A stretch of DNA of 64,000 nucleotides from Oscillospiraceae bacterium (GTDB lineage Bacteria > Bacillota > Clostridia > Oscillospirales > CAG-382), in contig SVRI01000002.1 in the NCBI GenBank assembly GCA_015064895.1, positions 84,113 through 148,112 on the forward strand. The letters run 5' to 3'. Each line of letters begins with the position of its first letter. The stretch's first letter is position 1. Of this stretch, positions 9,382-49,149 are shown in pieces. A program made the position numbers and the translations under genes. The notes under the pieces were generated by a model, which was not told the origin of the DNA, did not search any database, and saw only the letters and a program-made list of their open reading frames with translations.

Positions 9382-10263
9382 ATGAAAATTTCAACACAAA
9401 CAGGCTCATTTATGAAGCATTTTTCCGACAGGGAAATAGTTGACATTCTTAAAGACGCAGGCTTTGACGCCATAGACTACTCATTTTTTGACGTACAGAG
9501 ATGCAATCCCGACATATCGGACAGTGAATACAAACAAAGGTTTACCGAACTCAGAAAATACGCCGAGGACAAGGGGTTATACTTCAACCAGTCCCATGCT
9601 CCCCACCCGTCTTCACTTATCGATGAAGATTTTACAAAGAGAAGATTCAGTGAGCTTATTACAGCCCTGAAAAATTCCTCTTATCTCGGTGTCCGCAACA
9701 TTATTATTCATCCGTTTCAGCATCTCAGATACTACACAAATGAAAACGTCGAGGTACTTTACCAAATGAACCTTGAGTTTTACGCAAGGCTTATCCCCTA
9801 CTGCGAGGAATACGGCATTACGGTATGCACCGAAAATATGTTTCAAGCCTACGGAGATTCCTACAAGCTTTGGGATTCAACATGTTCAAAAGCAGAGGAA
9901 TTTGTAAGATATATTGACGGCATAGGCAGTCCCTATGTAAAGGCTTGCGTTGACATAGGTCATACGGTGCTTGTTGGGGAAAATCCCGTAAAGATGATAA
10001 AATCGCTTGGTCACAGGGTTGCGGCACTTCACGTTCACGACAACGACGGTATACACGACGAGCACACAGTTCCTTTCCACGGCATTATCAAGTGGAACGA
10101 GGTTGCAAAGGCGCTCAAAGACATTGGATACAGCGGTGAAATCACCCTTGAAACCGAAGGCTTTATGAATCAGTACAAGATTCCGAAAGAGCTTGTTCCT
10201 GCCTCTGCCAAGTACATGGCAGAAACGGCAAGATTATTTTCTGATATGGTCATCAATGCCTGA
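9382..10263 (+). CDS. sugar phosphate isomerase/epimerase (xylose isomerase-like TIM barrel)
   Basis: 293 aa. Pattern typical of AP-endonuclease-2/xylose-isomerase-like TIM barrels (NIIIHP, CTEN, DIGH, HVHDN, TLE). Substrate unknown. Confidence 0.65.
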   Translation: MKISTQTGSFMKHFSDREIVDILKDAGFDAIDYSFFDVQRCNPDISDSEYKQRFTELRKYAEDKGLYFNQSHAPHPSSLIDEDFTKRRFSELITALKNSSYLGVRNIIIHPFQHLRYYTNENVEVLYQMNLEFYARLIPYCEEYGITVCTENMFQAYGDSYKLWDSTCSKAEEFVRYIDGIGSPYVKACVDIGHTVLVGENPVKMIKSLGHRVAALHVHDNDGIHDEHTVPFHGIIKWNEVAKALKDIGYSGEITLETEGFMNQYKIPKELVPASAKYMAETARLFSDMVINA

Positions 10264-10311
10264 TACAAACAAAAATCTGCTCTAAAGGGTCTTCATACAG
10301 GAAATAAATTA

Positions 10312-10810
10312 AAGTCAGCGAGTTTTTTGCTTGCTGGCTTTTTTATATTATTCTTTCTGTACTTTTGCCCCGATGCAAAAGTACCAAAAAATCTCCACTC
10401 AAAAAGAGGGGATGGCTCATTCGGGAGGAATAAAGTACAAAAAGGCAAATTTTGACTAGGACAAATGAAACCAAACACTTCTACGAAGCCGTCAAAATTT
10501 GAACATCTACAAACTTCAATGATACTGCCGCCCTCATTCCGCTGACTTCCCCTCTTTCGCCGTGGTGGCTTAACTTCCCTCTCTTGGTGTTGGTGCAAAT
10601 CTGAAGTAAATTCGGTTGGTTGGATTGAATGTGTTCAGCCGATGTATCCCAAGCGATGCCGGGTGCGTTTTCGCGGAAATAAGGTTTGAAACTCTGTAAA
10701 CACTTACCCGCGTTGTGAGAGGTAAGCCGCCGCAGGTCGGGAAAGCCCGACCACCGCAGTGACGAAATACTCCTCTATGTACAAAGAAAGGCGTACCGAA
10801 GTACGCCTTA
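10312..10810 (+). repeat. family A large modular structured repeat, copy 1 (candidate ncRNA or MITE-like element)
   Basis: Collinear with the minus strand of 49111-48692 and partly with 16487-16716. Parts: H0 terminator-like hairpin 10312-10340; H1 gtacttttgc/gcaaaagtac 10359-10384; helix aaagagggga (10403-12) with tcccctcttt (10548-57); inner helix caaattttgac (10445-55) with gtcaaaatttg (10491-501); helix 10564-10583 with 10717-10733; hairpin gtcgggaaagcccgac 10736-51; terminal hairpin 10787-10810. Confidence 0.75.
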
Positions 10811-10829
10811 AAATTCATTCAGCCCTAAG

Positions 10830-10862
10830 AAAACGCCCCTTATTGGCGTTTTTTGTTTTTTT
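10830..10862 (+). terminator. terminator-like hairpin plus T-run downstream of family A copy 1
   Basis: aacgcc (10832-37) pairs with ggcgtt (10845-50), followed by ttttgttttttt. No plus-strand CDS ends nearby, so it could terminate a transcript of the repeat itself. Confidence 0.45.
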
Positions 10863-10972
10863 CACGGAACTTTTTTTATTTTTATACGTCTTACAAGTGT
10901 AAAATGCTTAAAATCTCCTTTTAAACAGCTTTTTACAATTATCGCTTCCTCCTATTTTTTGCGATAATTGAG

Positions 10973-11003
10973 CAGCCGTGCCCATCGGGGCACGGCTGTT
11001 TTC
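10973..11003. terminator. GC-rich hairpin at the dnaE 3' end (T-run on the plus side)
   Basis: cagccgtgccc (10973-83) pairs with gggcacggctg (10988-98), followed by ttttctttt on plus. It lies 3 nt from the dnaE stop codon (11006-11008) and is possibly bidirectional. Confidence 0.5.
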
Positions 11004-11005
11004 TT

Positions 11006-14000
11006 TTATTTTTTGTCCTTTAGTTTGACATTCTCTTTGCCGAGAATTCTATAAAGGGTTTCGAGCATGGTATCCGTTACAAACGAATGGGTGTCAAGGG
11101 CACGGACAAGCTTCTTTGTGTCATCGAAGTAGATATACACATCCTGTTTTCCGTAATTGTAGATTTCAAGTACGCTCTGCGTCATGTGCATTTCATTTGA
11201 ATTTTCACTCGGAATTTTCAGGTACAGATCCTGCATTTTTCTTTCGGGTTCAGGAGTGTATACCTCCCTCTCGGGCGGTGTTTGTCTGACATTCCCTCCC
11301 ATGATTGCCGAAAGATTGACCTTCACTTTCTTTGCGTCATCATTTGCAGGCGGTGTATACTGTTTTTTCTCAATTACAGGTATTTCGCCTTCTTTTACGT
11401 CAAAGATACTGCGAACAAGGATTTTTGGTTCTTCCTTTTGTTCTTCACCGTCATCATTTCTTGATTCCTTGACGGATATTTCGCCCGTAACACCGAGAAT
11501 CTTACCCGGCTGAAGCTTTGAAACATTGGCTTCATACACATTCGGGAAAACAATAAGCTCAATTTCACCCGATTCGTCTTCAAGCTGTACAAACGCCATT
11601 CTTGTATCGCTCTTTGTCAGCTTTTCCTTCTTTGAAGAAACAAGACCGAGAAGCGTCACCGTCTTTCCGTCACGGTACTTTGATTTATCCCCGTCTGCAA
11701 CGGCATTATTGATATCCGACAGCTTATCGCACCTTAGCTTCTTTGATGTTTCTGCATATCTTTCAAGGGGATGTCCCGAAAGATAGAGTCCTGTCATCTC
11801 CTTTTCCATGGCAAGCTTTTCATAATGCGAAAACTCGGGTATATCGGGGTAGGAAATATTGAGAGAACCAACATCATCTTCACTTGTATCAACGGCTGAG
11901 AACATATCGAACTGCCCCTCAACATTTCTGTGGTTTCTTCTCTGAAGTGCATCAATTGCATCCTCAAATACCGAGAGAAGCTGACTTCGTTTTTTTCCGC
12001 CGAGACCGTCAAGTGCACCTGCTTTAATGAGGCTTTCAACCATACGTTTATTGATTTCGCCGTCGCTCATTCGTGTGAGGAAATCTTCAAGGCTTACAAA
12101 TTTTCCGCCGCTTCGTTTTTTGATTATCTCCTTAACAAAGCCTTCGCCGACATTCTTTATTGCCATAAGACCGAAAACAATACCGTCTTGTCCTGCCGAG
12201 AAGGTAAGCGAGCTTGTATTGACATCCGGTCGTGTCACGGCAACACCCATCTTTTTACTCGAGCCGATATATTCCATTACCTTATCGGTACTGTTTATGA
12301 CACTCGACAGAAGCGAAGCCATATATTCTTTGGGATAATGGCATTTGAGATATGCCGTATAATAGGCAAGATAGGCATAGCACGCCGCATGGGATTTATT
12401 GAAAGCATACTGGGCAAAGGTTGCCATATCGTCATATATTTCCTTTGCAGCCTCCTCGGACACACCGTTATTTATACAGCCGGGAACTTCCACGTTTCCG
12501 TTTTCATCCTTTTTACCGTAGATGAAGTATTCCCTTTCACGTTCCATGACGTCCCTTTTCTTTTTGGACATGGCACGTCTTACAATATCGGCTCTGCCAA
12601 AGGAATAGCCTGCAAGTTTACGGAAGACCTGCATAACCTGCTCCTGATATACTATACAGCCGTTGGTAACATTCAGGATTTCTTCTAAGTTCGGATCTGC
12701 ATATTTTACACCCTTCGGGTTCTTTCTGTTTTCAAGGAACTTCGGAATTGAGTCCATGGGGCCGGGTCTGTAAAGAGAAATGGCGATTGTGATATCTTCG
12801 ATATTCTTTGGAACCATTCTCACAAGCAGGCTTCTCATTCCGCCCGACTCAAGCTGGAATATGCCGTCGGTATCACCTTTTGCAAGAAGGCCATAGGTCT
12901 TTTCATCGTCAAGGGGAATATCCGACACGGATAGTCCCGCACTTTTTGCCGCTTCATAGATGACCGTAAGGTATCTAAGTCCGAGAAAGTCGATTTTAAG
13001 AAGTCCCAAATCCGCGATTTCATTCATTGTATACTGGGTTACAATGCAGTCGCCGTTCATGGAAAGGGGTACATATTCCGAGACGGGTTTATCGGTGATT
13101 ACCACACCTGCCGCATGAGTAGATGTATTTCTCGGCATACCCTCGATTTTCTTTGCGATATTTATAAGGGAATTTACCTTGAAATCTTCTCGGCAAAGCT
13201 CTCGAAGCTCGCTGCTTTCTTCAAGTGCCTGACTGAGTGTTATATTGAAAGGACGGGGTATAAGCTTTGCAACCCTATCGACATCGGCATAAGGCATTCC
13301 GAGAACACGTCCGACATCCCTTATTGCCGCCTTTGCCGCAAGTGTACCGAAGGTTACAATCTGTGCAACATGGTCTTTACCGTATTTATTCGCAACGTAG
13401 TCTATGACCTCCTGCCGTCTGAAGTAGCAGAAGTCTACGTCAAAGTCGGGCATACTTACCCTTTCGGGGTTAAGGAAGCGTTCAAAAAGAAGGTCATGGG
13501 GAATGGGGTCAACGTCGGTAATGCCGAGGCAATATGCCGCAAGGCTGCCTGCACCCGAGCCTCTGCCGGGACCTACGGGAATACCCTCACTCTTTGCGTG
13601 GGCAATAAAGTCACGCACTATAAGATAGTATTCGTCATAGCCCATGGTATTGACCACGGATAACTCGTATTCGAGACGTTTTTCGTATGCATCTCTGTCA
13701 GGTTTTTCATACTTTGAAAGACGTCTTTCAAGTCCTTCGTGACAGAGTTTATCAAGGTACTGTTTTGATGTAAGTCCGTCGGGCGGATAAAATGCAGGAA
13801 GGAACAATTTATCAAATTCAAAGTCAAAGTTACACTTTTGTGCAATCTTCAATGTATTCTCAAGTGCCTCGGGAACATCGCCGAAAAGTATTTTCATTTC
13901 ATCGGGTGTTTTGAGGTAAAATTCATCCTGTTCAAAGCCCTTATGTCTGCCGTCGGCAAGGGTGGTCTGGGTCTGGATGCACATAAGAACTGCCTGTGTC

Positions 14001-14641
14001 TGGGCATCGTCTTTATCTATATAATGGGCATCGTTTGTTGCGACAAGGGGGATGTTCAGCTTTTTGGAAAGCTCTACAAGCTTTTCATTTACGATTTCCT
14101 GTTCGTCAATACCGTGTCTCTGAAGTTCAAAGTAGTAGTCCTCACCGAAAAGGGATTTCATTTTGAGTGCGTGATTTACGGCATCATCTATATTTCCGTC
14201 GAGAATCTTCTGAGGAACAAATCCGGCAAGGCATGCCGAAAGGCACACAAGTCCTTCATGGTACTCTTCGAGAAGCGACATATCAATTCTCGGTTTTGAG
14301 TAAAAGCCTTCGGTAAAGCCGAGGGACACCATTTTAATGAGGTTCTTATAGCCCGTCTCATTTTTACAGAGCAGTACAAGGTGATTATATTTTGCGTCAA
14401 GATTTCTGTCCCTGCCGTGTCGGGAATTCGGTGCAACATACACCTCACATCCGATAATGGGTTTTATTCCGTTATCTTTACAGGCTTTATAAAATTCAAC
14501 AGCACCGTACATAACGCCGTGGTCGGTTACAGCAAGAGCAGGCATACCGCAATCTTTTGCCTTTTTAGCCGCCTCTCTTATTCTACAGGCACCGTCAAGA
14601 AGGCTATATTCTGTATGGACGTGTAAATGGACAAAGGACAT
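11006..14641 (-). CDS. dnaE: DNA polymerase III subunit alpha (DnaE type)
   Basis: ORF 11006..14650 trimmed to ATG 14641 (AGGTG 6 nt upstream). PHP N-terminus MSFVHLHVHTEYSLLDG, polymerase core, and an OB fold near the C-terminus. There is no PolC-type exonuclease insert. Confidence 0.93.
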   Translation of the reverse strand: MSFVHLHVHTEYSLLDGACRIREAAKKAKDCGMPALAVTDHGVMYGAVEFYKACKDNGIKPIIGCEVYVAPNSRHGRDRNLDAKYNHLVLLCKNETGYKNLIKMVSLGFTEGFYSKPRIDMSLLEEYHEGLVCLSACLAGFVPQKILDGNIDDAVNHALKMKSLFGEDYYFELQRHGIDEQEIVNEKLVELSKKLNIPLVATNDAHYIDKDDAQTQAVLMCIQTQTTLADGRHKGFEQDEFYLKTPDEMKILFGDVPEALENTLKIAQKCNFDFEFDKLFLPAFYPPDGLTSKQYLDKLCHEGLERRLSKYEKPDRDAYEKRLEYELSVVNTMGYDEYYLIVRDFIAHAKSEGIPVGPGRGSGAGSLAAYCLGITDVDPIPHDLLFERFLNPERVSMPDFDVDFCYFRRQEVIDYVANKYGKDHVAQIVTFGTLAAKAAIRDVGRVLGMPYADVDRVAKLIPRPFNITLSQALEESSELRELCREDFKVNSLINIAKKIEGMPRNTSTHAAGVVITDKPVSEYVPLSMNGDCIVTQYTMNEIADLGLLKIDFLGLRYLTVIYEAAKSAGLSVSDIPLDDEKTYGLLAKGDTDGIFQLESGGMRSLLVRMVPKNIEDITIAISLYRPGPMDSIPKFLENRKNPKGVKYADPNLEEILNVTNGCIVYQEQVMQVFRKLAGYSFGRADIVRRAMSKKKRDVMEREREYFIYGKKDENGNVEVPGCINNGVSEEAAKEIYDDMATFAQYAFNKSHAACYAYLAYYTAYLKCHYPKEYMASLLSSVINSTDKVMEYIGSSKKMGVAVTRPDVNTSSLTFSAGQDGIVFGLMAIKNVGEGFVKEIIKKRSGGKFVSLEDFLTRMSDGEINKRMVESLIKAGALDGLGGKKRSQLLSVFEDAIDALQRRNHRNVEGQFDMFSAVDTSEDDVGSLNISYPDIPEFSHYEKLAMEKEMTGLYLSGHPLERYAETSKKLRCDKLSDINNAVADGDKSKYRDGKTVTLLGLVSSKKEKLTKSDTRMAFVQLEDESGEIELIVFPNVYEANVSKLQPGKILGVTGEISVKESRNDDGEEQKEEPKILVRSIFDVKEGEIPVIEKKQYTPPANDDAKKVKVNLSAIMGGNVRQTPPEREVYTPEPERKMQDLYLKIPSENSNEMHMTQSVLEIYNYGKQDVYIYFDDTKKLVRALDTHSFVTDTMLETLYRILGKENVKLKDKK

Positions 14642-14649
14642 ATATTTCA

Positions 14650-14785
14650 CCTACTTTCTCTTTCGCAGAGAAAGTAGGCAAAGAGAACTCGCATTTTGCA
14701 CCTTTCTGCAAAGATTTAATATTCTGTTTATCACTCGATTGGTTTACCGTTCGACCGCCATATATCCAAGCGGTCGAACTCATTA
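14650..14785 (-). repeat. family B bipartite hairpin element, copy B1 (the entire whiA-dnaE intercistronic region)
   Basis: Minus-strand reading: TAATGAG, then hairpin 1 (gttcgaccg / loop cttggatatatgg / cggtcgaac, 14779-14749), about 70 nt, then hairpin 2 (cctactttctct / gcgaa / agagaaagtagg, 14678-14650). It aligns end to end with 21084-20947. Confidence 0.8.
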
Positions 14786-16486: not shown

Positions 16487-16810
16487 ATTTCTGTTCTTTT
16501 GTCCCGAAACAAAAGAACCAAAAATTCTCCACTCAAAAAGAGGGGATGGCTCATTCGGGAAAAGCAAAATGCAAAAAGGCAAATTTTGACTAGGACAAAT
16601 GAAACCAAATACTTCTACGAAGCCGTCAAAATTTGGGTATCGTCAAACTTCATTTATACTGCCGCCCGCCTTGCGCTGACTTCCCCTCTTTCGCCGTGGC
16701 GGCTTAACTCCTCTCACTGTTTGTGCGACACCAATGATTGGCGAACAAATAAAATTTCCCGTGAATTTGCTGTCGGGCTTTCCCGACCCGTGGCGGCTTA
16801 ACTCCTCTCA
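16487..16810 (+). repeat. family A modular structured repeat, copy 2
   Basis: H1 gttcttttgt/acaaaagaac at 16493-16518. Helix aaagagggga (16537-46) with tcccctcttt (16682-91). The 23-nt motif ccgtggcggcttaactcctctca occurs twice as a perfect direct repeat (16694-16716, 16788-16810). Hairpin gtcgggctttcccgac at 16772-87 is the inverse complement of 10736-51. Confidence 0.75.
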
Positions 16811-16837
16811 TTCAGTGTAGTGCAAGATATAATGATG

Positions 16838-16866
16838 TTGACAATTATTTTTAATTGTAGTAAAAT
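16838..16866 (+). promoter_or_regulatory. sigma-70/SigA-type promoter upstream of the LRR protein gene
   Basis: TTGACA (16838-43), exactly 17 nt, then TAAAAT (16861-66). This implies a 5' leader of about 185 nt. Confidence 0.55.
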
Positions 16867-17058
16867 CAACTTGCTACATGCTACACAAAATTAAATTATT
16901 TTCACTGCTAATAGTGTGTATTTTTTTAGGTAAAAATGCACGCTCTATCCGTCATACTGTTAGTAGTGGATTGATTTTGTGTAGCAACAAGCGGAGCTGC
17001 GTTTTTCGTGTGTGGCTCTGTTTGGGCTACACACTTTTTTATTTTAGGAGGTATTTCC

Positions 17059-19080
17059 ATGAAAAAACGAGTTATTATTCTGTTATCACTCTTAATGTGT
17101 CTGTTTTTTGCTTTTTCCACATCTGCAACTGTAGTAGATTCCGGAACTTGCGGTGATAATTTAACATGGACTTTTGATGATATAGGAACGCTTACTATCA
17201 GTGGTACGGGGGATATGTATAATTGGCGGTTCGAAGATGCTGAGCCAGAGTACGATGCACCGTGGTATCGTTACAGAGAAACGATAGATAATGTTATTGT
17301 AGAAGCAGGTGTAACAAGCATAGGTAATCAGGCGTTTAGTTGCTTCCGACTTGTATTATATTATGAAAGCATAGGCGGTCCTCTTACAAGCATAAGCATT
17401 CCCGATACCGTGGTAAAAATCGGTGAACGGGCATTCGAACATTGTTCAAGCCTTGAATCAATAGTAATTCCAAACAGTGTAACCAGTATTGGAAATAGAG
17501 CGTTCAATTGTTGTACAAGCCTTAAAGAGATATTCATTCCTGCAAGTGTAACAAGCCTTGGACGTCAAGTGATCGGGGGACTAGTAAGCCAAGACGAGGT
17601 GATTTACGATTACGCTGAAGGAGACTTTGGCGGCACTGTACTCGGAGGTTGCACAAGTCTTGAAAGCATTACAGTTGATTCAAACAATAAAATGTATTCT
17701 AATGATGAAAGAGGTGTTTTATTTAATAAGGACAAAACAATACTTATTAAATACCCTATCGGAAATAAAGCAACTTCTTATAAAATCCCCGACGGCGTAA
17801 CAATCATTGGCAGAGGTGCATTCGAAGGTTGTTCAAATCTTAAGGAAATAATTATTCCTGAAGGTGTAACATGTATAAGCAGTTATGCATTCGAAGGTTG
17901 TTCAAATCTTAAGGAAATAATTATTCCTGAAAGCGTAATAAGCGTTGACTACGGGGCGTTCGAAGATTGCACAAACCTCGAAAGCGTTGATGTTGGAAAT
18001 AGCATAACAATCATTGATGAAAGTGCGTTTGACGGTTGCACAAGCCTTAAAAACATAACTGTTGCTGAAAATAACGAGTTATATTCAAAAGATGAAAGAG
18101 GTGTTTTGTTTAATAAGGACAAAACAATACTTATAAAATATCCAGTTAAAATTGAAGGAACTTCTTATGAAATTCCCGACGGTGTAACAAAAATTAACGA
18201 TTACGCATTCAAAGGATGCACAAGTCTTGAAGAAGTATTAATTCCTGACGGTGTAACAAGTATTGGATATTCTGCTTTCGAGGATTGCACAAGACTTAAA
18301 GCAATAGTCATTCCCGACAGTGTAACGGGTATTGGTGAACGTGCGTTTTATGGTTGTACAAATCTTAAAAGTGTAAAAATTGGTAGTAGAGTAACAAATA
18401 TAGGTGGTATGTACGCATTTGCATTTTGCACAAGTCTTGAATCGATAGAAATTCCCGAAAGCGTCACATACGTAGGGCAATTTTCATTTATGTATTGTAG
18501 GAATCTAAAAAAAGCAACTGTTTTGAGCAGAAATGCAGAATTCAGTTTTAGTATAGATGACGTGTTTGGACGTTCAAATCCCGTCATCTACGGCTACAAA
18601 GGTTCAACGGCGGAAACGGAAGCAAAAGAATACAACCGCCCGTTTGTTGCCCTTTCCGCCACCCCCACAAACGCAAAAGTACTCATCAACGGCAAAGAAG
18701 TTGCATTTACAGCCTACAACATCGGCGGCAACAACTACTTCAAACTCCGTGATGTTGCAATGGCACTAAACGGCAGTGAAAAGAATTTCAACGTAGGTTG
18801 GGACAGCACCAACAATGCAATTTCTCTTACTTCAAACCAAAGCTACACATCGGTCGGCGGCGAACTCATTGTTGATGCAAATGCTACCTCAACAGAACCT
18901 ATCGTTACAAATTCAAGAGTTTACAAGGATAGCGAGCCCGTTTCATTCATTGCGTTCAACATCGGTGGAAACAACTACTTCAAGCTTCGTGATATTGGCA
19001 AAGCTTTTGATTTCGGTATCGGTTGGGACAATGAGACTAAAACCATTACCATTGACACAAGCATAGGTTATACCGAATAA
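17059..19080 (+). CDS. secreted BspA-type leucine-rich-repeat surface protein with two C-terminal stalk-like repeats
   Basis: ORF 17008..19080 trimmed to ATG 17059 (AGGAGG 7 nt upstream; signal peptide MKKRVIILLSLLMCLFFAFSTSA). About 15 units of the ~23-aa repeat IP..V..IG..AF..C..L. The C-terminus has two copies of a module ..NGK/S..V.F.A(Y/F)NIGGNNYFKLRD.. resembling copper-amine-oxidase-N-like stalk domains. Confidence 0.8.
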   Translation: MKKRVIILLSLLMCLFFAFSTSATVVDSGTCGDNLTWTFDDIGTLTISGTGDMYNWRFEDAEPEYDAPWYRYRETIDNVIVEAGVTSIGNQAFSCFRLVLYYESIGGPLTSISIPDTVVKIGERAFEHCSSLESIVIPNSVTSIGNRAFNCCTSLKEIFIPASVTSLGRQVIGGLVSQDEVIYDYAEGDFGGTVLGGCTSLESITVDSNNKMYSNDERGVLFNKDKTILIKYPIGNKATSYKIPDGVTIIGRGAFEGCSNLKEIIIPEGVTCISSYAFEGCSNLKEIIIPESVISVDYGAFEDCTNLESVDVGNSITIIDESAFDGCTSLKNITVAENNELYSKDERGVLFNKDKTILIKYPVKIEGTSYEIPDGVTKINDYAFKGCTSLEEVLIPDGVTSIGYSAFEDCTRLKAIVIPDSVTGIGERAFYGCTNLKSVKIGSRVTNIGGMYAFAFCTSLESIEIPESVTYVGQFSFMYCRNLKKATVLSRNAEFSFSIDDVFGRSNPVIYGYKGSTAETEAKEYNRPFVALSATPTNAKVLINGKEVAFTAYNIGGNNYFKLRDVAMALNGSEKNFNVGWDSTNNAISLTSNQSYTSVGGELIVDANATSTEPIVTNSRVYKDSEPVSFIAFNIGGNNYFKLRDIGKAFDFGIGWDNETKTITIDTSIGYTE

Positions 19081-20767: not shown

Positions 20768-20946
20768 GGTAAATACAGTCCTTTCTTTCGGATATGACAA
20801 TACCGCCATCACGCAAAAAAGCATGACGGCGGCAGAAAGTACGTATTTACTCTTTTAAAAGGCGACAGTGAGCCGAAGTGAATACGTCTTTCTGCGATTT
20901 ATGTAATTGTAAAGGCAACTTCGCCCGTCCGTACTCATTCTACTCA

Positions 20947-21084
20947 CCTACTTTTTCTTTCGGAGAAAAAGTAGGCAAAAAGAACTCACACTTAGCTCGT
21001 TCCTGCCATTATCTTTCTCCGATTTTTTGTTTCTCAAATTGTTTTACGTCTGTGTGCCATAAATCCAAGCACACAGGCTCATTA
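20947..21084 (-). repeat. family B bipartite hairpin element, copy B2 (in the mgtE leader, just after mutS)
   Basis: Minus-strand reading: TAATGAG, then hairpin 1 (gcctgtgtg / cttggatttatgg / cacacagac, 21078-21048), then hairpin 2 (cctactttttct / ccgaa / agaaaaagtagg, 20975-20947), followed by TGA. Confidence 0.8.
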
Positions 21085-29632: not shown

Positions 29633-29676
29633 AGCAATTGTAATGCTTTTTATTTAATTCAAAGGAGTTGTTTGTT

Positions 29677-31089
29677 TTGAAATTGAAACGAATATTATTT
29701 GTTTTACTTGCATTTATTTCACTTCTTGCCATTTGCTCCTGCAAAAAAGATGAAGACAAAAAATCTACATACGTTCCTGTAGCAGGTGACGAATACTGGC
29801 TCGGTCACAATCCTCAGGAAGACATGAAAGGTTATCAATTCAGAATTCTTTCCAGAAAAGGCATGAAAAGCGATCAGTATGCTGAAGAACAGACCGGTGA
29901 CATTATCAACGATGCCATTTACAAGAGGAACGAAACTGTAAAGGGTTATTTCAACTGTGATGTCGTTTCAATTGAAAGCTCATCAGGCAGTGCCGATGAT
30001 GCCATCAACTCCATTCTTGCGGGTGATGACCAGTATGACATCATTTTCCCTCACTCAAGATCAGCATTCCAGTATGCTGTTCAGGATGCTCTTGTAAATT
30101 TCAATGACATAAAAACCATCCACCTTGACAAGTCCTGGTGGTCGCAGGATATTATTGATTCATGTAATGTAAACGGACATCTTTACGTTCTTGACGGCGA
30201 TATCTCCACACACAGACTTCAGTATGCATTCTGTATGTTCTTCAACAAGAGAATCTTTGACGAACTCGGTATTGAATATCCTTACCGGATGGCTCTTGAC
30301 GGCACATGGACATTTGATGAGTTTTCAAAGCTTGTAAAGAAGGGTTCAAAGGACCTCAACGGTGACGGTATTCTTAAGCCCGAAGACGACCAGTTCGGTT
30401 ATTACACAAGTAACTGGTACGGACCTATCAACGTACTTTATACGGGCGGTCAGAGAATTTATTCCAAAAATGCGGCAGGAGTACCTTATATATCTCTCAA
30501 TTCCAACAAGACTGTGGAAATTTTCTCAGAATTCTTTAAGCTTACCGATTCCGACGATGTCTATATTTACAATCAGATAAGCAATGAAAGCGACCCTGCA
30601 GGAAATCCCTTCAATGAAGGCCGTTCAATGTTTGCAGACAAGGGCCTTGGTAATGCGAAGGCTATGAGAAGCATGAACGACGAATTCGGTATTCTCCCTT
30701 GGCCCAAGTTCACCGAGGAAGACGTATATGCAACTGTAGTAAACGGTCATGCAAGCCTTATGGTTATGCCTATAACCGTTGCTGACAAACAGAAATCCGG
30801 TAAAATTATCGAAGCACTCTGTGCTATCGGTAACAAGGAAGTTATTCCTGCATTCTACGATGTATCACTTAAAACAAAATTCTCTAGAGACGCCGAATCC
30901 GAAGCAATGATTGATATCATAAAAGATTCCATCATCTACGACCTCGGTTACGTTTCCGGCGGTGTATTGAATTCTGTAGGTTCGTCACTTTCCAAGAGCA
31001 GCAACCATGACTTCGCTCAATTCTATGCTCAGAACGAATCCAAGGCTCAGTCAGACCTTCAGAGCTTCCTTGAAGCTTACGGTTCATAA
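29677..31089 (+). CDS. ABC-type extracellular solute-binding lipoprotein (family-1 SBP-like), paralog 1
   Basis: ORF 29668..31089. TTG 29677 is the best start (AAAGGAG 9 nt upstream) and gives MKLKRILFVLLAFISLLAICSC with a lipobox. SBP-like features: NKRIFDELGIEYP..DGTWTFDEFSKLVKKGSKDLNGDG. Confidence 0.8.
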   Translation: MKLKRILFVLLAFISLLAICSCKKDEDKKSTYVPVAGDEYWLGHNPQEDMKGYQFRILSRKGMKSDQYAEEQTGDIINDAIYKRNETVKGYFNCDVVSIESSSGSADDAINSILAGDDQYDIIFPHSRSAFQYAVQDALVNFNDIKTIHLDKSWWSQDIIDSCNVNGHLYVLDGDISTHRLQYAFCMFFNKRIFDELGIEYPYRMALDGTWTFDEFSKLVKKGSKDLNGDGILKPEDDQFGYYTSNWYGPINVLYTGGQRIYSKNAAGVPYISLNSNKTVEIFSEFFKLTDSDDVYIYNQISNESDPAGNPFNEGRSMFADKGLGNAKAMRSMNDEFGILPWPKFTEEDVYATVVNGHASLMVMPITVADKQKSGKIIEALCAIGNKEVIPAFYDVSLKTKFSRDAESEAMIDIIKDSIIYDLGYVSGGVLNSVGSSLSKSSNHDFAQFYAQNESKAQSDLQSFLEAYGS

Positions 31090-31101
31090 TATTAAGATTT
31101 G

Positions 31102-31134
31102 AAAGCCCGTTTTCCAACGGGCTTTTCTTTTTTT
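31102..31134 (+). terminator. Rho-independent terminator after SBP paralog 1
   Basis: aaagcccgt (31102-10) pairs with acgggcttt (31117-25), followed by tcttttttt. Confidence 0.8.
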
Positions 31135-31225
31135 CGATTTATTATTTTTTTACAATTTGTTATCCGCATTCTAACAAAGTGGTGTTAATGTATAGTGAGA
31201 GTTAGGCTTTTTAGGGGGTAATATT

Positions 31226-32632
31226 TTGAATATTAAGAGTATTTTTTTAATCCTTCTTGCGGTATTATCTATTTTTGCTGTCAGCTCATGCAAGAAGAAA
31301 GACTCCGGAATTTCTACATACGTTCCTGTTGCCGGTGATGAGTACTGGCTGGGTCACAATCCGCAGGAAGATATGGACGGATATCAATTCAGAATCCTTT
31401 CGAGAAAAGGCATGAAAAGTGACCAGTATGCAGAAGAAGAAACCGGCGATATTATCAATGATGCAGTTTTCAAAAGAAATGAAACGGTAAAGGGTTATTT
31501 CAACTGCGACATCATTACAATAGAAAGCTCTACAAACAAGGCCGACGATGCCATCAACTCAATCCTTGCAGGCGATGACCAGTATGACATTCTTCTTCCC
31601 CACTCAAGATCGGCTTTCCAGTATGCAATCCAGGATGCACTTGTTAACTTCAACGATGTAAAGACAATCGATACATCCAAGGATTGGTGGTCGAAGGATA
31701 TTATTGACTCCTGTAACATAAACGGTTATCTCTACGTTCTTGACGGTGACATCTCTACCCACAGACTTGAATACGGCTTTGCCATGTACTTCAACAAGAG
31801 GATTTTTGACGAGCTTGGTCTTGAATATCCTTATCAGATGGCTATTGACGGTACATGGACATTTGACGAATTTTCAAAGCTCGTAAAGAAGGGTTCAAAG
31901 GACCTCAACGGCGACGGTCTCATCAAGCCCGAGGACGACCAGTACGGTTACTATTCATGGCATGCCTTCGGACCCATTCAGGTGCTTTATACGGGCGGTC
32001 AGAGAATCTATTCCAAGAGTGCTACGGGTGTTCCCTATCTTTCTTTAAACTCAACAAAAACTTTAAATCTTTATTCCGATTTCTTCAGACTTTGCGATTC
32101 CGATGACGTATTACTCTGTGCTGCACAGAATGCTCCGTCAGAAAATTTATTCACTGCAGGACGTGCAATGTTCGCAGACAACGGTCTCGGTCAGGCAAAA
32201 ACATTTAGAAACATGAGCGATGAATTCGGTATTCTCCCCTGGCCCAAGTACACAGCAGAAGATGAATACAAGACAGTTATCAACGGTCATGCAAGCCTTC
32301 TCGTTATGCCCATCACTGTTCCGGACAAGCAAAAATCGGGCAAGATTATCGAAGCACTCTGTGCTCTTGGCAACAAAGAAGTAGTTCCTGCTTTCTATGA
32401 TGTATCTCTTAAAACAAAGTTTTCGAGAGACGCCGAATCCGAAGCAATGATTGATATTATCAGAGACTCTCTCATATATGACCTCGGCTATGTTTCGGGC
32501 GGTACATTCCAGAATGTCGGTGAAAGACTTGCATCAATGGGTAACCGTGACTTTGCCTCCTATTATGCACAGAACGAATCCAAGGCTCAGACAGATCTTC
32601 AGAACTTCCTCGCATCCTACGGCAAATTATAA
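31226..32632 (+). CDS. ABC-type extracellular solute-binding lipoprotein, paralog 2
   Basis: 468 aa. TTG start with AGGGGG 7 nt upstream. Signal and lipobox MNIKSIFLILLAVLSIFAVSSC. Full-length alignment with paralog 1. Confidence 0.8.
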   Translation: MNIKSIFLILLAVLSIFAVSSCKKKDSGISTYVPVAGDEYWLGHNPQEDMDGYQFRILSRKGMKSDQYAEEETGDIINDAVFKRNETVKGYFNCDIITIESSTNKADDAINSILAGDDQYDILLPHSRSAFQYAIQDALVNFNDVKTIDTSKDWWSKDIIDSCNINGYLYVLDGDISTHRLEYGFAMYFNKRIFDELGLEYPYQMAIDGTWTFDEFSKLVKKGSKDLNGDGLIKPEDDQYGYYSWHAFGPIQVLYTGGQRIYSKSATGVPYLSLNSTKTLNLYSDFFRLCDSDDVLLCAAQNAPSENLFTAGRAMFADNGLGQAKTFRNMSDEFGILPWPKYTAEDEYKTVINGHASLLVMPITVPDKQKSGKIIEALCALGNKEVVPAFYDVSLKTKFSRDAESEAMIDIIRDSLIYDLGYVSGGTFQNVGERLASMGNRDFASYYAQNESKAQTDLQNFLASYGKL

Positions 32633-32644
32633 AATGCAACAGCA

Positions 32645-32677
32645 AAAGGCTTGTCTTACGGCAAGCCTTTATTTTTG
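32645..32677 (+). terminator. Rho-independent terminator after SBP paralog 2
   Basis: aaaggcttg (32645-53) pairs with caagccttt (32662-70), followed by atttttg. Confidence 0.8.
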
Positions 32678-32706
32678 TACATTTTTTATTCTTTACAAAT
32701 TAGATG

Positions 32707-32735
32707 TTGACTACAGTGAAAAAACTGTGTAAAAT
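32707..32735 (+). promoter_or_regulatory. promoter of SBP paralog 3
   Basis: TTGACT (32707-12), 17 nt, then TAAAAT (32730-35). Confidence 0.6.
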
Positions 32736-32769
32736 ACAATATGAAGTTCATATTTAGGAGGTATATCCT

Positions 32770-34179
32770 TTGAGAATCAAAAGATTATCATGTATTCTTC
32801 TTGCCGTAGCATCTTTATTTATAATCAGTGCGTGCAAGAAAGATGACAAAGACAGAACCACATACGTTCCTGTAGCCGGTGACGAATATTGGTTAGGTCA
32901 CATTGAACAGGAAGACATGCAGGGATATCAGTTCAGAATACTTTCAAGAAAAGGCATGGTAGATGACCAGTATGTTGAAAAAGAAACAGGCGATATCATC
33001 AACGATGCCGTCTACAAGAGAAATGAAACGGTAAAGGGATATCTTAATATCGACATAGTTTCAATCGAAAGTTCCACTGACACCGCGTCCGACGCAATCA
33101 ACTCAATTCTTGCGGGCGATGACCAGTATGACGTAATGTTCCCCCACTCAAGAGCGGCTTTCCAGTATGCTGTTCAGGATGCACTTGTAAACTTCAATGA
33201 CATTAAAACAATTGACACCTCTAAACCCTGGTGGTCACAGGATATCATAGATTCATGTAATGTAAACGGACATCTTTATGTTCTTGACGGCGACATTCAG
33301 ACTGACAGACTTTTCTATGCGTTCTGTATGTTCTTCAACAAGAGAATCTTTGACGAGCTGGGTGTTGAATATCCTTACCAGATGGCACTTGACGGCACAT
33401 GGACATTTGATGAGTTTTCAAAGCTTGTAAAGAAGGGCTCAAAAGACCTCAACGGTGACGGTTTGCTCAAGCAAGAAGAAGACCAGCTCGGCTACTACAC
33501 AAGAGAATGGTACGGTCCTATCCAGGCACTTTATTCGGGTGGACAAAGAATCTATTCCAAGGATGCAAGAGGCATACCCGTTCTCTCACTCAACTCCAAT
33601 AAAACAGTTGATATTTTCTCCGATTTCTTCAAGCTCGCCGACTCAGATGACGTTTTCCTTCAGTTGACTCCCGGAAGACTTGCAAAGGAAGACTTATTCC
33701 CTGTAGGACGTGCAATGTTTGCAGACAGAGGTCTCGGCTCTGCCCAGGCACTCAGAAGTATGGATGACGAATTCGGTATTCTCCCCTGGCCAAAGTTTTC
33801 TGCCGATGATGAATACAAGACGGTGGTTAACGGTCATGCATGTTTACTTACAATGCCCATCACTGTTCCCGATAAGCAGAAGTCAGGTAAGATTATTGAA
33901 GCCCTCTGTGCCCTCGGCAACAAGGAAGTACTTCCTGCATTCTATGAAGTATCACTAAAGACCAAGTTCTCTAGAGATGCCGAATCCGAAAAGATGATTG
34001 ACATTATCAAGGACTCCATTATCTACGACCTCGGTTACGTTTCCGGCGGTACAATGAACTCGGTCGGTGCTACTCTTGCTCAGAGTAACAACCATGATTT
34101 CTCTCAGTTCTATGCACAGAATGAATCAAAGGCTCAGACAGACCTTCAGAGTTTCCTTAAATCCTACGGTAAAATGTAA
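32770..34179 (+). CDS. ABC-type extracellular solute-binding lipoprotein, paralog 3
   Basis: 469 aa. TTG start with AGGAGG 8 nt upstream. MRIKRLSCILLAVASLFIISAC. Confidence 0.8.
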   Translation: MRIKRLSCILLAVASLFIISACKKDDKDRTTYVPVAGDEYWLGHIEQEDMQGYQFRILSRKGMVDDQYVEKETGDIINDAVYKRNETVKGYLNIDIVSIESSTDTASDAINSILAGDDQYDVMFPHSRAAFQYAVQDALVNFNDIKTIDTSKPWWSQDIIDSCNVNGHLYVLDGDIQTDRLFYAFCMFFNKRIFDELGVEYPYQMALDGTWTFDEFSKLVKKGSKDLNGDGLLKQEEDQLGYYTREWYGPIQALYSGGQRIYSKDARGIPVLSLNSNKTVDIFSDFFKLADSDDVFLQLTPGRLAKEDLFPVGRAMFADRGLGSAQALRSMDDEFGILPWPKFSADDEYKTVVNGHACLLTMPITVPDKQKSGKIIEALCALGNKEVLPAFYEVSLKTKFSRDAESEKMIDIIKDSIIYDLGYVSGGTMNSVGATLAQSNNHDFSQFYAQNESKAQTDLQSFLKSYGKM

Positions 34180-34184
34180 TTTTC

Positions 34185-34211
34185 AAACTCCCCTTTTTGG
34201 GGAGTTTTTTT
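34185..34211 (+). terminator. Rho-independent terminator after SBP paralog 3
   Basis: aaactcccc/ggggagttt followed by a T-run. Nearly identical to the terminator at 36104-36132. Confidence 0.85.
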
Positions 34212-34212
34212 A

Positions 34213-34241
34213 TTGACTCATTCATGAAACAGTGATATAAT
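34213..34241 (+). promoter_or_regulatory. promoter of SBP paralog 4
   Basis: TTGACT (34213-18), 17 nt, then TATAAT (34236-41). Confidence 0.65.
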
Positions 34242-34265
34242 CTATTACAATAAGGAGGTTTGATT

Positions 34266-36098
34266 ATGAAAAACATTCGCAAACTGACACTTACATTACT
34301 TTTAATCTCACTTATAGTTTCAATTATCGCATGTACTTCTGCAGATACAAAGGAAACAGATCCGGAGGATGCTGTATGGGAAGGCTATGATGATGTTGAG
34401 TTTGTTAAGTTTCTGGGAAACAGCAGTGCAGATGAGGTAGAAGTCACGGTAAAGGAAGGTTGGGGCAAGTCGGATGAGCTTAACGAAGAAGATGACTTAT
34501 CCGAGGATGCAAAGGCTTATACATACACCTATGAGCGTGTTTCGGGCAAAGATATTGTAGAAAAAATCCACTTTTTTATGATTCTTGAAGACAATGAGCT
34601 TACGCCTGCGGGTTGTTACAACGAAACCACCCATGAGGAGCTGGACAAAGGCGACACCGAGGATATACTCGAAGGGCTGATTGACGAATTTGAACTGTAC
34701 AACGAAAAGAAAAGCTCAAGCAACAATAGTAATTATCCCGACAATAACAATGCAGAATCTTTACGTCCCAACAATACAACATATCTTCCTAATTCAGGCT
34801 ATGAAAACTGGCTTGGTCACATTGAACAGGAAAACATGGACGGTTATACGTTCAGAATCCTTTCAAGAAAAGGCATGGTAGATGACCAGTATGTTGAAGA
34901 AGAAACAGGTGACATTGTCAACGATGCTGTCTACAAAAGAAACGAAATTGTAAAGGGTTACTTCAATATTGACATTGTTTCAATCGAAAGCTCCACTGAC
35001 ACAGCTTCCGACGCAATCAACTCAATTCTTGCGGGCGATGACCAGTACGATATCATGTTCCCTCACTCAAGAACAGCATTCCAGTATGCTGTTCAGGATG
35101 CTCTTGTCAATTTCAATGATGTATACACAATCGATACATCAAAAGAATGGTGGTCACAGGATATTGTTGACTCATGTAACGTAAACGGTAACCTTTACGT
35201 ACTTGACGGTGATATCTCAACTCACAGACTTTATTACTGCTTTGCAATGTACTTCAACAAGAGAATATTTGATGAACTCTGTCTTGAATATCCCTATCAG
35301 ATGGCTCTTGACGGCACATGGACATTTGACGAATTCTCAAAGCTTGTAAAGAAGGGTTCAAAGGACCTCAACGGTGACGGTCTTCTCAAGCAGGAAGATG
35401 ACCAGCTCGGCTATTATACAAGAGAATGGTTCGGTGCAATTCAGGTTCTTTATTCAGGTAACCAGAGAATCTACTCAAAGGATGCAAGAGGAATTCCGAG
35501 ACTTTCGCTTAATACACCTAAAACAGTTCAGTTGTTTTCCGACTTCTTTAAACTGACCGATTCCGATGATGTATTCATGCAGATTTCACCCGGAAATCTC
35601 GCAAAGGAAGACTTGTTCCCTGCAGGTCGTGCAATGTTTGCAGACAAGGGTCTCGGCTCTGCTCAATCACTCAGAAGCATGGACGATGAATTCGGTATCC
35701 TTCCCTGGCCTAAGTTCTCTGAAGAAGATGAGTATGAAACGATTGTAAACGGTCATGCAAGCCTTATGGTTATGCCCATCACTGTTCCGGACAAACAAAA
35801 ATCCGGTAAGATTGTAGAAGCACTCTGTGCCATCGGTAACAAGGAAGTTATTCCTGCATTCTACGAAGTATCACTTAAAACAAAATTCTCTAGAGACGCC
35901 GAATCCGAAGCAATGTTTGATATCATAAAAGATTCCATCATCTACGACCTCGGTTACGTTTCGGGAGGTACAATGAACTCTGTTGGTGCTACTCTTGCTC
36001 AGAGAGACAACCACGATTTCTCTCAGTTCTATGCACAGAATGAATCAAAGGCTCAGTCAGACCTTCAGAACTTCTTAAGCTCTTACGGTAAAATGTAA
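34266..36098 (+). CDS. ABC-type extracellular solute-binding lipoprotein, paralog 4, with an extra ~150-aa N-terminal region
   Basis: ATG 34266 (GGAGG 7 nt upstream). MKNIRKLTLTLLLISLIVSIIAC. About 150 aa of acidic, unique sequence and an S/N-rich linker precede the SBP body shared with the other paralogs (from ..YLPNSGYENWLGH). Confidence 0.8.
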   Translation: MKNIRKLTLTLLLISLIVSIIACTSADTKETDPEDAVWEGYDDVEFVKFLGNSSADEVEVTVKEGWGKSDELNEEDDLSEDAKAYTYTYERVSGKDIVEKIHFFMILEDNELTPAGCYNETTHEELDKGDTEDILEGLIDEFELYNEKKSSSNNSNYPDNNNAESLRPNNTTYLPNSGYENWLGHIEQENMDGYTFRILSRKGMVDDQYVEEETGDIVNDAVYKRNEIVKGYFNIDIVSIESSTDTASDAINSILAGDDQYDIMFPHSRTAFQYAVQDALVNFNDVYTIDTSKEWWSQDIVDSCNVNGNLYVLDGDISTHRLYYCFAMYFNKRIFDELCLEYPYQMALDGTWTFDEFSKLVKKGSKDLNGDGLLKQEDDQLGYYTREWFGAIQVLYSGNQRIYSKDARGIPRLSLNTPKTVQLFSDFFKLTDSDDVFMQISPGNLAKEDLFPAGRAMFADKGLGSAQSLRSMDDEFGILPWPKFSEEDEYETIVNGHASLMVMPITVPDKQKSGKIVEALCAIGNKEVIPAFYEVSLKTKFSRDAESEAMFDIIKDSIIYDLGYVSGGTMNSVGATLAQRDNHDFSQFYAQNESKAQSDLQNFLSSYGKM

Positions 36099-36103
36099 TT
36101 TTC

Positions 36104-36132
36104 AAACTCCCCTTTTTTGGGGAGTTTTTCTT
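36104..36132 (+). terminator. Rho-independent terminator after SBP paralog 4
   Basis: aaactcccc-tttttt-ggggagttt followed by ttc tt. Confidence 0.8.
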
Positions 36133-36182
36133 ATTTCAGCAATACCAAACAACTTTCTTAATATTGATGAAACAAAAAATCG

Positions 36183-36211
36183 TTGATATGTTAACAGAAT
36201 TTTGGTATAGT
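36183..36211 (+). promoter_or_regulatory. promoter of SBP paralog 5
   Basis: TTGATA (36183-88), 17 nt, then TATAGT (36206-11). Confidence 0.6.
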
Positions 36212-36250
36212 TATGGTGTATTGCAAGAATTTATTAAGGAGGTACATACC

Positions 36251-37706: not shown

Positions 37707-37716
37707 TGTATAAATT

Positions 37717-38160
37717 AAAACCGAAACTAACGTGTAGTCTCGGTTTTGCCGCGGGGCTTCCCCTTACAAAACACATAGTCTTTTGCCTGAGTTTGTCCGC
37801 TTTCGTTTATGGCGGACAAACGGTACTTCACTCGGGCAATAAAAAAACAAAACCGAAACTAGAGTATAGTCTCGGTTTTGCCGCGGGGCTTCTCCTTACA
37901 AAACACATAGTCTTTTGCCTAAGTTTGTCCGCTTTCGTTTATGGCGGACAAACGGTGATTCACTCGGGCAATAAAAAAATAAACCGAAACTAGAGTATAG
38001 TCTCGGTTTTGCCGTGGGGCTTCCCCTTACAAAACACATAGTCATTTGCCTGAGTTTGTCCGCTTTCGTTTATGGCGGACAAACGGTGCTTCACTCGGGC
38101 AATAAAAAAATAAACCGAAACCAACGTGTAGTCTCGGTTTTGCCGTGGGGCTTCCCCCAC
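37717..38160. repeat. tandem array, 3 full units plus 1 partial unit of 131-132 bp, directly abutting the 3' end of tRNA-Val
   Basis: Unit starts (aaaccgaaac..) at 37718, 37850, 37981 and 38112. Units are near-identical. Each holds an 11-bp hairpin aaaccgaaact/agtctcggttt (on the minus strand this is followed by atttttttatt, which is terminator-like) and a family B hairpin-1 module (tttgtccgc / tttcgtttatg / gcggacaaa at 37792-37820, 37924-52 and 38055-83). Confidence 0.9.
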
Positions 38161-38236
38161 TGGTGGACGATAAGGAACTCGAATCCCTGACCACTCGCAC
38201 GTCAAGCGAGTGCTCTACCAACTGAGCTAATCGTCC
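38161..38236 (-). tRNA. tRNA-Val (anticodon GAC), CCA encoded
   Basis: Manual cloverleaf: acceptor GGACGAT/ATCGTCC; D-arm GCTC-AGTTGGTA-GAGC; anticodon arm CTCGC-TTGACGT-GCGAG (GAC at 34-36); variable loop TGGTC; T-arm AGGGA-TTCGAGT-TCCTT; then A-CCA. Total 76 nt. Confidence 0.9.
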
Positions 38237-48463: not shown

Positions 48464-48487
48464 TAAAAAATGTTTCCTTAGGGATAG

Positions 48488-48512
48488 AAGGCGTACTGCG
48501 GTACGCCTTTTG
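48488..48512 (+). terminator. Rho-independent terminator after alr (also the terminal hairpin module of the family A repeat)
   Basis: aaggcgtac (48488-96) pairs with gtacgcctt (48501-09), followed by ttgtcg. A homologous hairpin sits at 10787-10810. Confidence 0.65.
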
Positions 48513-49113: not shown

Positions 49114-49149
49114 ATTTGTTCCCTATATGAATACACCTTATGCTGTCTT

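Follow-up and report, generated by a model that had tools for sequence, protein, structure and literature searches.

Why should the gap between two convergent housekeeping genes hold several hundred base pairs of repeated, tightly folded DNA? The question is raised by a 64,000-nt stretch of contig SVRI01000002.1 from an Oscillospiraceae bacterium (assembly GCA_015064895.1), hereafter called the window, to whose positions all coordinates refer. Within it, a xylose-isomerase-like TIM-barrel gene on the plus strand (9382-10263) and dnaE on the minus strand (11006-14650) face each other across a gap of 742 bp (10264-11005), in which copy 1 of a repeat family, Family A, is located. A preliminary description of the locus had proposed that copy 1 gives rise to a self-contained plus-strand RNA of 450-500 nt with its own 3' terminator, a proposal that is partly supported by the analysis reported here. 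In our interpretation, copy 1 is probably a lineage-restricted, non-coding, non-autonomous mosaic repeat, similar to bacterial interspersed mosaic elements (BIMEs), BOX elements and miniature inverted-repeat transposable elements (MITEs), and belongs to a new mobile intergenic family. An insertion polymorphism, a modular anatomy, covariation of helices, a lack of coding capacity and an absence of neighboring transposases are all directly observed.

Filled and empty sites and the distribution of Family A

Orthologous loci were retrieved through homologues of the isomerase gene, whose nucleotide identity to the window gene is 93% in the nearest relative (locus L023), 89.6% in L025 and L026, 85.7% in L027 and 79.8% in L028. 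The isomerase-dnaE gap measures 176-185 bp in the last four of these loci versus 742 bp in the window, and it is made up of a dnaE-side hairpin and a bidirectional terminator (AAAAAATCCGCC..GGCGGTTTTTT) that is homologous to window 10828-10862. In L023, the isomerase stop codon is followed directly by ACAAAAAACCGCC, and the start of the gap (A-run and hairpin) is intact. The homology between the flanks of copy 1 and these relatives ends at about 10277, at ...ACAAAAA(TC), and restarts at about 10830, at AAAACGCC; the comparison of filled and empty sites (L023, L025-L028) delimits a composite insertion of ~552 bp at ~10278-10829, with the ends given to within a few bases. From these alignments, copy 1 is an insertion at the A-run edge of a resident terminator and, judging by the gene identities, was gained on the window's own branch. 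The preliminary description had itself named a recent insertion that close relatives do not share as an outcome that would speak against its RNA proposal, and the region is absent from L023 and L025-L028. It had also read the hairpin and T-run at 10830-62 as the element's own 3' terminator, with no gene to terminate. Hairpin and T-run are present, but they sit in the 176-185-bp empty sites as well: the bidirectional terminator at 10828-10862 is found in all five empty loci (L023, L025, L026, L027, L028), lies outside the element, predates it and belongs to the isomerase/dnaE pair. Intrinsic terminators are insertion hot spots here, and the same isomerase terminator has a different island in the nearest relative. 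In L023/L024 (10882-17032), an island of 6 kb or more (TnpV, PadR, DUF2812 and HTH genes) has its junction in the loop of this terminator and displaces the dnaE synteny; it is a second mobile element targeting that terminator.

Two further sites were compared in the same way. At the site of copy 3, the distance from alr to the YpsA-like gene is 32 bp in L032, where it holds a single terminator, versus 686 bp in the window, and copy 3 is likewise an insertion into this terminator-only gap. At the site upstream of murB, L027 has a full composite, L025 has a mini unit and L028 has no insert; in the window this site is occupied by copy 2, a single unit with a duplicated motif. The corresponding site of L026 (14200-14400), whose isomerase protein is the same as that of L025, contains an insert that does not belong to Family A and includes the palindromic motif GTCATTCTGAGCGTAGCCGAAGAATC; the difference between L025 and L026 points to rapid turnover at this position. 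In addition, three independent assemblies of a relative with 81% identity in alr (L029-L031) have contigs that all end 65 bp past alr, and the breaks fall at TTTTT-AGGGATAGAG, which is the B-end terminus of Family A. Family A explains the assembly breaks in these metagenome-assembled genomes (MAGs).

The 742-bp gap had been described as lacking a plausible open reading frame (ORF), and this holds. Its ORFs are merely mechanical, with two on the minus strand (101 aa and 82 aa) and three on the plus strand (42-47 aa), and six-frame translations of seven copies revealed no conserved ORF and no shared frame or strand. All copies of Family A, in the window and in the retrieved loci, are intergenic. 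Among the genes of the window and those flanking each copy, all of them housekeeping genes, the number of transposases is zero.

Using a profile of the core, three loci were identified in the window (nhmmer, E = 1e-80 to 1e-85), in agreement with repeat finding and alignment. The three copies named in the preliminary description are real, but their 3' half is not common to copy 2. Approximately 10 or more further copies were found in related gut Oscillospiraceae assemblies (L004, L009, L013, L014, L035, L037, L039 and L040, together with L025 and L027 at the murB-upstream site). When 185,579 species genomes were scanned with an 18-mer, true matches came from a single MAG, that of Clostridia bacterium RGIG8792 (water-deer colon), in which they lie on four contigs; a 19-mer metagenome scan gave three chance matches only. 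When the spurious 101-aa ORF, which overlaps the core, was used as a protein-database query, four clusters were retrieved that led to more copies, in JGI and ENA assemblies (L035-L040). BLAST against phages and plasmids (blastn, sensitive "distant" mode) returned no similarity, and scans of viral contigs with three conserved blocks gave no match. At the Rfam gathering score, nothing but a tRNA elsewhere was found in the window and in seven related loci; at E<=10, matches to the A core (10354-10590) reach at most ~20 bits against gathering scores of at least 55, and the stronger sub-threshold matches at the locus all lie over the hairpins at 10771-11013. Family A appears from these searches to be rare and lineage-restricted. 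It represents previously undescribed intergenic repeats of uncultured ruminant-gut Oscillospiraceae, with no match in Rfam or in any of the searched collections of phage, plasmid and viral sequences.

Anatomy of the units and covariation of their helices

Copy 1 is composed of an A-type unit and a reduced B-type unit in convergent orientation. The A-end terminus is TAAAGGG (10283-10289, plus strand), and the homology also starts at this point in copy 3, L014 and L035 (TAAGGTG, TAAAATG and TAAAGGT). It is followed by a terminator-like hairpin with a T-run, hpA (10311-10341, plus strand, 13 pairs), which is kept in the same three loci. An element-borne terminator hairpin with G-U pairs had been proposed at 10312-40, with a wobble-compatible relative at 49084-49111, and both were recovered, the counterpart in copy 3 lying at 49113-49082 and again containing G-U pairs. 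The A-type unit or core (10354-10590, plus strand), 72-90% identical to eight other A units, contains in this order the hairpin H1 (10359-10384, plus strand), a perfect 10-bp palindrome; a CCAAAAA linker; the helices P0 and P1, which enclose an interior of 135 nt; and GGCTTAACTTCCCTCTC as its 3' tail. The 5' arms lie at 10395-10412 of the plus strand (P0, CCAC, 10395-98; P1, AAAGAGGGGA, 10403-12) and the 3' arms at 10548-10565 (P1, TCCCCTCTTT, 10548-57; P0, GTGG, 10562-65). The conserved 5' and 3' segments of the unit pair with each other in P0 and P1, and the tail repeats the P1 3' arm. The interior holds an 11-bp helix (10446-10501, plus strand; 10446-56 with 10491-501) with a 34-nt loop, invariant in most copies; it had been recognized before, but its first arm is one base off the 10445-55 given then. 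The ~230-nt 5' core shared by the copies runs from H1 through the CCAAAAA linker, CTCCACTC, AAGAGGGGATGGCTCATTCGGGA, the 11-bp helix, GCTGAC and TTCCCCTCTTT to GCCGTGGCGGCTTAACTCCTCTC, and the sequence 3' of it differs among copies. In A units, an ATG sits directly 3' of the P1 arm, which resembles a Shine-Dalgarno (SD) sequence. The mini-ORF that it opens (MAHSG...) was rejected as a gene, as it varies from 5 to ~38 aa, contains frameshifts, has an SD-ATG spacing of 0-3 nt and is not hydrophobic.

Between the convergent units, a spacer (10585-10716) shows ~84% mean column identity over copy 1, copy 3, L027, L035 and L037. The reduced B-type unit (10717-10786, minus strand) was recognized by comparison with full B units at 48510-48722 (plus strand) and in L027 (17119-16926, minus strand). 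Its retained parts are the 3' motif (10717-36, GCGGCGGCTTACCTCTC), a hairpin at 10736-51 (GTCGGGCTTTCCCGAC) and what is left of the hairpin H0, and its hairpin-plus-motif module recurs at 16772-16810. The hairpin at 10736-51 exists as described earlier, but what was called a GAAA loop reads CTTT in the unit orientation of the family. Next follows hpB (10788-10809, minus strand), an inward-facing terminator-like hairpin previously noted as the terminal hairpin at 10787-810 and also present at 48483-48514 (plus strand), in L027 and in L035. The B-end terminus is CCCTAAG (10823-10829, plus strand), the inverse of TTAGGG, also found in copy 3 (48477-83), in L027 and at the L029-L031 contig breaks; in inverse reading, the B-side termini are TTAGGG or TAAGGG. 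Copy 3 (48477-49140, minus strand) is a full composite of 664 bp, whose diverged B unit (48510-48722, plus strand) faces its A unit (49067-48826, minus strand). B units are homologues of A units in inverted orientation (nhmmer E = 1e-17 and 2e-10, with 1e-17 for 48510-48722), and a sub-terminal inverted homology of ~60 nt, covering H1 and the P-arm, is seen in copy 3 and L027. Copy 2 (16488-16815, plus strand) consists of a single A-type unit, a hairpin (16772-87) and a second, direct 3' motif (16788-16810). Downstream of copy 2, at 16838-17060, a leader of ~170 nt follows a near-consensus promoter (TTGACA-17-TAAAAT); the leader ends in a terminator-like hairpin (17008-17034) just 5' of the ribosome-binding site of a BspA-type leucine-rich repeat gene, is conserved in L025 and may be an attenuator.

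At least four interiors were distinguished between the P1 arms, and they are interchangeable: a large A form, a large B form, a 45-nt form called type m (L025, the L037 B unit, L039) and the bare hairpin GTCGGGCTTTCCCGAC (second motif of copy 2, B units of copy 1 and L035). AAGAGGGGATGGCTCATTCGGGA, an unpaired block of 23 nt, does not vary in any of the A units that have the large interior, and the type-m units (L025, L039) keep its first 17 nt only. In H0/hpB, a C-G pair closes a loop that reads TGCG throughout, apart from one TTCG, over five different stems, and on the unit strand this loop corresponds to an RNA tetraloop of the cUNCGg type (10788-10809 and 48483-48514; L004, L009, L027, L037, L039 and L040); the listing of TGCG/TTCG-loop hairpins that precede H1 also gives window 10359-10384. 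The contig L039 (ENA ERZ27317805, 1102 bp) carries two type-m units in direct tandem, ~485 nt apart, has no convincing gene and is made nearly entirely of repeat modules. Recurring motifs in L039/L040 (GTGCGACA, CATATGCCGTGAG and GGACGATAGAGAAAATTGCGGGATAG) are also found in L014, L013 and L004. In its 3' part, the Family A locus of L014 contains a hairpin module (GAGTTTG-stem-TTTATG-stem-CAAAC) that is also part of four tandem 131-132-nt repeats at window 37709-38157, directly 3' of a tRNA gene (38164-38236, minus strand), each of which consists of hairpins and a T-run on the minus strand; the module occurs as well in the syntenic repeats of L032 (816-980).

The folding is far more stable than that of shuffled sequences; the z-score is -5.3 for copy 1 and, for copy 3, -6.1 in the sense and -7.8 in the antisense direction. 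Covariation was assessed on an alignment of 13 units (9 A, 3 B, 1 mini) that contains the joined 5' and 3' segments only. For H1, P0 and P1 together, 97.8% of the cells are paired versus 55-66% when the partner columns are slid, five pairs are changed on both sides, and none of 500 shuffles reaches the covariation score; as A and B are two lineages, these compensations represent few independent events. H1, placed at 10359-84 already in the preliminary description, is paired in 100% of the cells over the 13 units, with two compensated pairs. The 10-bp helix reported for 10403-12 with 10548-57 is exactly P1, in which GAGGGGA/TCCCCTC of the A type is replaced by GGAGAGA/TCTCTCC in the B type, with two compensated pairs, and in P0 CCAC/GTGG is replaced by CCGC/GCGG. 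The inner 11-bp helix has one compensatory pair, in L040, and hpA has one compensatory change, from A-T to G-C, in L014. A different picture is obtained for the bulged helix of ~20 bp that had been drawn between 10564-83 and 10717-33. The pairing is there, with 92.9% of the cells paired, but no pair is compensated and every shuffle scores equally; in L027 both partners have changed without compensation, leaving three mismatches. This inter-unit helix is simply the 3' motif of the A unit facing the inverted 3' motif of the reduced B unit. An alternative fold through cttacc/ggtaag, also put forward earlier, receives no backing, its pairing never varying informatively and showing no covariation.

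Nature of the element and competing explanations

In the model that we favor, the basic unit, ~230 nt long, starts with a terminator-like hairpin and its T-rich tract (hpA, or hpB/H0). H1 and an A-rich linker come next, then the P0/P1 clamp with its swappable interior and finally a pyrimidine-rich tail. A full element combines two convergent units, the conserved spacer of ~130 nt and short inverted termini, T(T/A)AGGG. It inserts at the edges of intrinsic terminators in gene-poor spots, mainly between convergent genes. Both hpA and hpB have the GC-rich hairpin and T-run of an intrinsic terminator and presumably terminate transcription. With an inward terminator at each end, incoming transcription would be halted at the border of the element, and insertion would therefore be nearly neutral for the flanking genes; plausibly, an insertion that separates a stop codon from its terminator is tolerated because the bracketing terminators stop read-in. 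After insertion, in this model, the elements decay and are quickly remodeled through internal deletion, module replacement and duplication. Mobilization would occur in trans, by an enzyme encoded elsewhere, the candidates being a hairpin-recognizing HUH/Y1 transposase or one that binds terminal inverted repeats (TIRs). The identity between copies, at most 90%, is compatible with activity near the split between the window and L023 (7% nucleotide divergence).

Several observations weigh against this model. No autonomous partner or mobilizing enzyme was found near any copy. In the comparison of filled and empty sites, a target-site duplication is at best imperfect for copy 1, AAAA(T)C, and nothing clear is seen for copy 3. 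The extreme termini comprise only ~7 nt, T(T/A)AGGG, and are missing from the B end of L035 and from single units. The maximum identity between sampled copies is 90%, from which recent activity is not evident, and the copy counts are those of the 64-kb window and the retrieved loci, not of whole genomes. Finally, the covarying helices and the invariance of AAGAGGGGATGGCTCATTCGGGA point to selection beyond the ends, a pattern not usually expected of a MITE in decay.

Another explanation, which we regard as unlikely, is that the unit is a structured RNA gene or 3' untranslated region module on the unit-sense strand and the element its mobile carrier. The RNA would then arise when transcription reads through the upstream terminator-like hairpin or when a transcript is processed after it. 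The compensatory changes in H1, P0, P1 and H0, the cUGCGg or cUUCGg loops over five different stems, the invariant unpaired 23-mer in the large-interior A-unit core and the position of the A unit, downstream of and co-oriented with a gene at 6/9 loci, all agree with an RNA. The signals for its synthesis point the other way. A consensus scan identified four terminator-like sites at the locus versus 1.0 expected, at 10311-10341 (plus strand), 10809-10788 (minus strand), 10828-10854 (plus strand) and 10970-11001 (plus strand). The first of them lies immediately 5' of the core, and the same type of scan, a promoter search having been suggested in the preliminary description, found no sigma-70-like promoter in the loci of copies 1 and 3. 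The hairpin at this position argues against the dedicated 450-500-nt plus-strand transcript proposed there, and of the two signals expected to bracket a stand-alone small RNA (sRNA) or non-coding RNA gene, a promoter-like site is lacking and the proposed 3' terminator is that of the resident genes. An internal promoter candidate in the inner helix (TTGACT-N16-AATACT) was discarded, as it occurs in some copies only and its -10 element is not conserved. The evidence on the strand conflicts: the non-Watson-Crick pairs of hpA (copy 1, copy 3, L014, L035) are all G-U on the unit strand, which favors the sense strand, whereas the four non-Watson-Crick cells of the inner helix are all A.C on that strand, which is G-U on the antisense. 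The A cores fold better as antisense, a strand that is G/U-rich, and the antisense strand overall folds at least equally well. Further points against an RNA gene are that no Rfam family matches, that the whole interior is lost or swapped in orthologous copies and that the distribution is very narrow.

A bolder variant, which appears quite unlikely to us, takes the ~230-nt unit as an undescribed self-folding mobile module with cargo interiors that homes to intrinsic terminators. The module could act as RNA, for example a guide, a scaffold or a ribozyme-like partner of an enzyme encoded in trans; alternatively, it could serve in transposition as an intermediate of folded single-stranded DNA (ssDNA). 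The long conserved core, the invariant 23-nt block and the covarying clamps leave room for such a function of the unit at the RNA or ssDNA level.

Very unlikely, in our view, is a host-beneficial terminator or insulator cassette that stops convergent transcription and stabilizes the 3' ends of the flanking mRNAs. Repetitive extragenic palindromic (REP) elements are a precedent for a terminator and mRNA-stabilizing role. The terminator-like hairpins at both ends face inward, the element sits between convergent genes directly at resident terminators, and SPRITE elements provide a further precedent (PMC3049150). Yet a single bidirectional terminator suffices in the relatives at these sites, the resident terminator beside copy 1 is still intact and makes the element redundant at that site, copy 2 is positioned 5' of a promoter instead of at a 3' end, and a terminator role does not need a conserved core of 230 nt. 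A convergent sense/antisense RNA pair made from the two facing units, resembling either type I toxin-antitoxin systems or antisense regulators, is extremely improbable: the units converge, their 3' motifs are complementary and the A units have the SD-like arm and ATG, but the MAHSG... frame is conserved neither in length nor in frame and is not hydrophobic (no conserved small hydrophobic ORF of the type I kind being present), promoters are absent from the consensus scan, the inter-unit helix shows no covariation and has three mismatches in L027, and single and tandem units occur.

Under the preferred reading as a mobile repeat, the covarying clamps, swappable interiors and cUNCGg-capped hairpins remain unusual for a MITE, and the long non-palindromic core and its invariant 23-nt block likewise stand out among repeats of the BIME, BOX or MITE kind. 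Should the units prove to be expressed, a new class of mobile RNA could be proposed for them. For annotation, the locus advises caution, since folding energy alone is insufficient to call sRNA genes.

Other repeats are present in the window. Five tandem paralogues of ~470-610 aa, 72-87% identical at the nucleotide level, occupy 29668-37660, the first of which has a weak match to SBP_bac_1 (extracellular solute-binding protein). A 63-nt repeat with 84% identity, forming the hairpin CCTACTTTCTCT..AGAGAAAGTAGG, is found at 14647-14709 (whiA/dnaE) and 20944-21006 (mutS/mgtE).

Comparison with known systems

Two mobile systems were considered and rejected as sources of the element. For integron attC sites, GCTTAAC fits RYYYAAC, but other units have GCTTATC and GCTTACC, and there are no cassettes. 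For a remnant of a group II intron or an IStron, there is no match to an intron model. Class C (IIC) group II introns nevertheless offer a parallel in their choice of target, as they home right beside intrinsic terminator hairpins; Family A differs from them in lacking an intron-model match, a domain V motif and a reverse transcriptase, and in being an inverted doublet. With the large structured RNAs OLE, GOLLD, ROOL, HEARO/omega RNA and raiA it shares a length of a few hundred nt, many helices and conserved unpaired blocks. In contrast to these, Family A has no Rfam match even at E<=10 and no associated protein gene or promoter, it is present or absent between near-identical loci, and it occurs in multiple rearranged copies per genome.

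The likeness to mobile repeats is closer in several respects. Family A is short, non-coding and multi-copy (552 and 664 bp for copies 1 and 3; three loci in 64 kb), as are MITEs such as Correia/NEMIS and bcr1 of the Bacillus cereus group, which are non-coding, a few hundred bp long, have inverted ends, show insertion polymorphism between strains and can carry promoter or terminator signals. Unlike these, Family A has no known matching insertion sequence or clear target-site duplication and is also found as single units and as tandem direct units. BIME/REP/REPIN elements of Proteobacteria are extragenic and often located between convergent genes at 3' ends, and are built from palindromic units of alternating orientation with conserved linkers, variable mosaics and compensated hairpins; in Family A, too, the A and B units are extragenic and lie in inverted orientation on either side of a conserved spacer. 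BIME/REP/REPIN elements are mobilized by RAYT HUH transposases. Family A differs in its units of ~230 nt versus 20-40 nt, in the long non-palindromic conserved core clamped by P0/P1, in the absence of a GTAG-type head and in its Firmicute host, and no RAYT was found around the copies; no genome-wide search for one was made.

The pneumococcal repeats BOX, RUP and SPRITE are modular and enriched between convergent genes, and SPRITE is terminator-like (PMC3049150). Like them, Family A is modular, variable in length (BOX, 67-637 bp), tightly folded and confined to a narrow clade (PMC3049150), and, as SPRITE does, its hpA and hpB resemble intrinsic terminators. There is no sequence similarity between the two groups, and in Family A the TIRs and target-site duplications are ill-defined. 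What sets Family A apart from BOX, RUP and SPRITE is the unit itself, which joins terminator-like ends, a large conserved core and swappable interiors.

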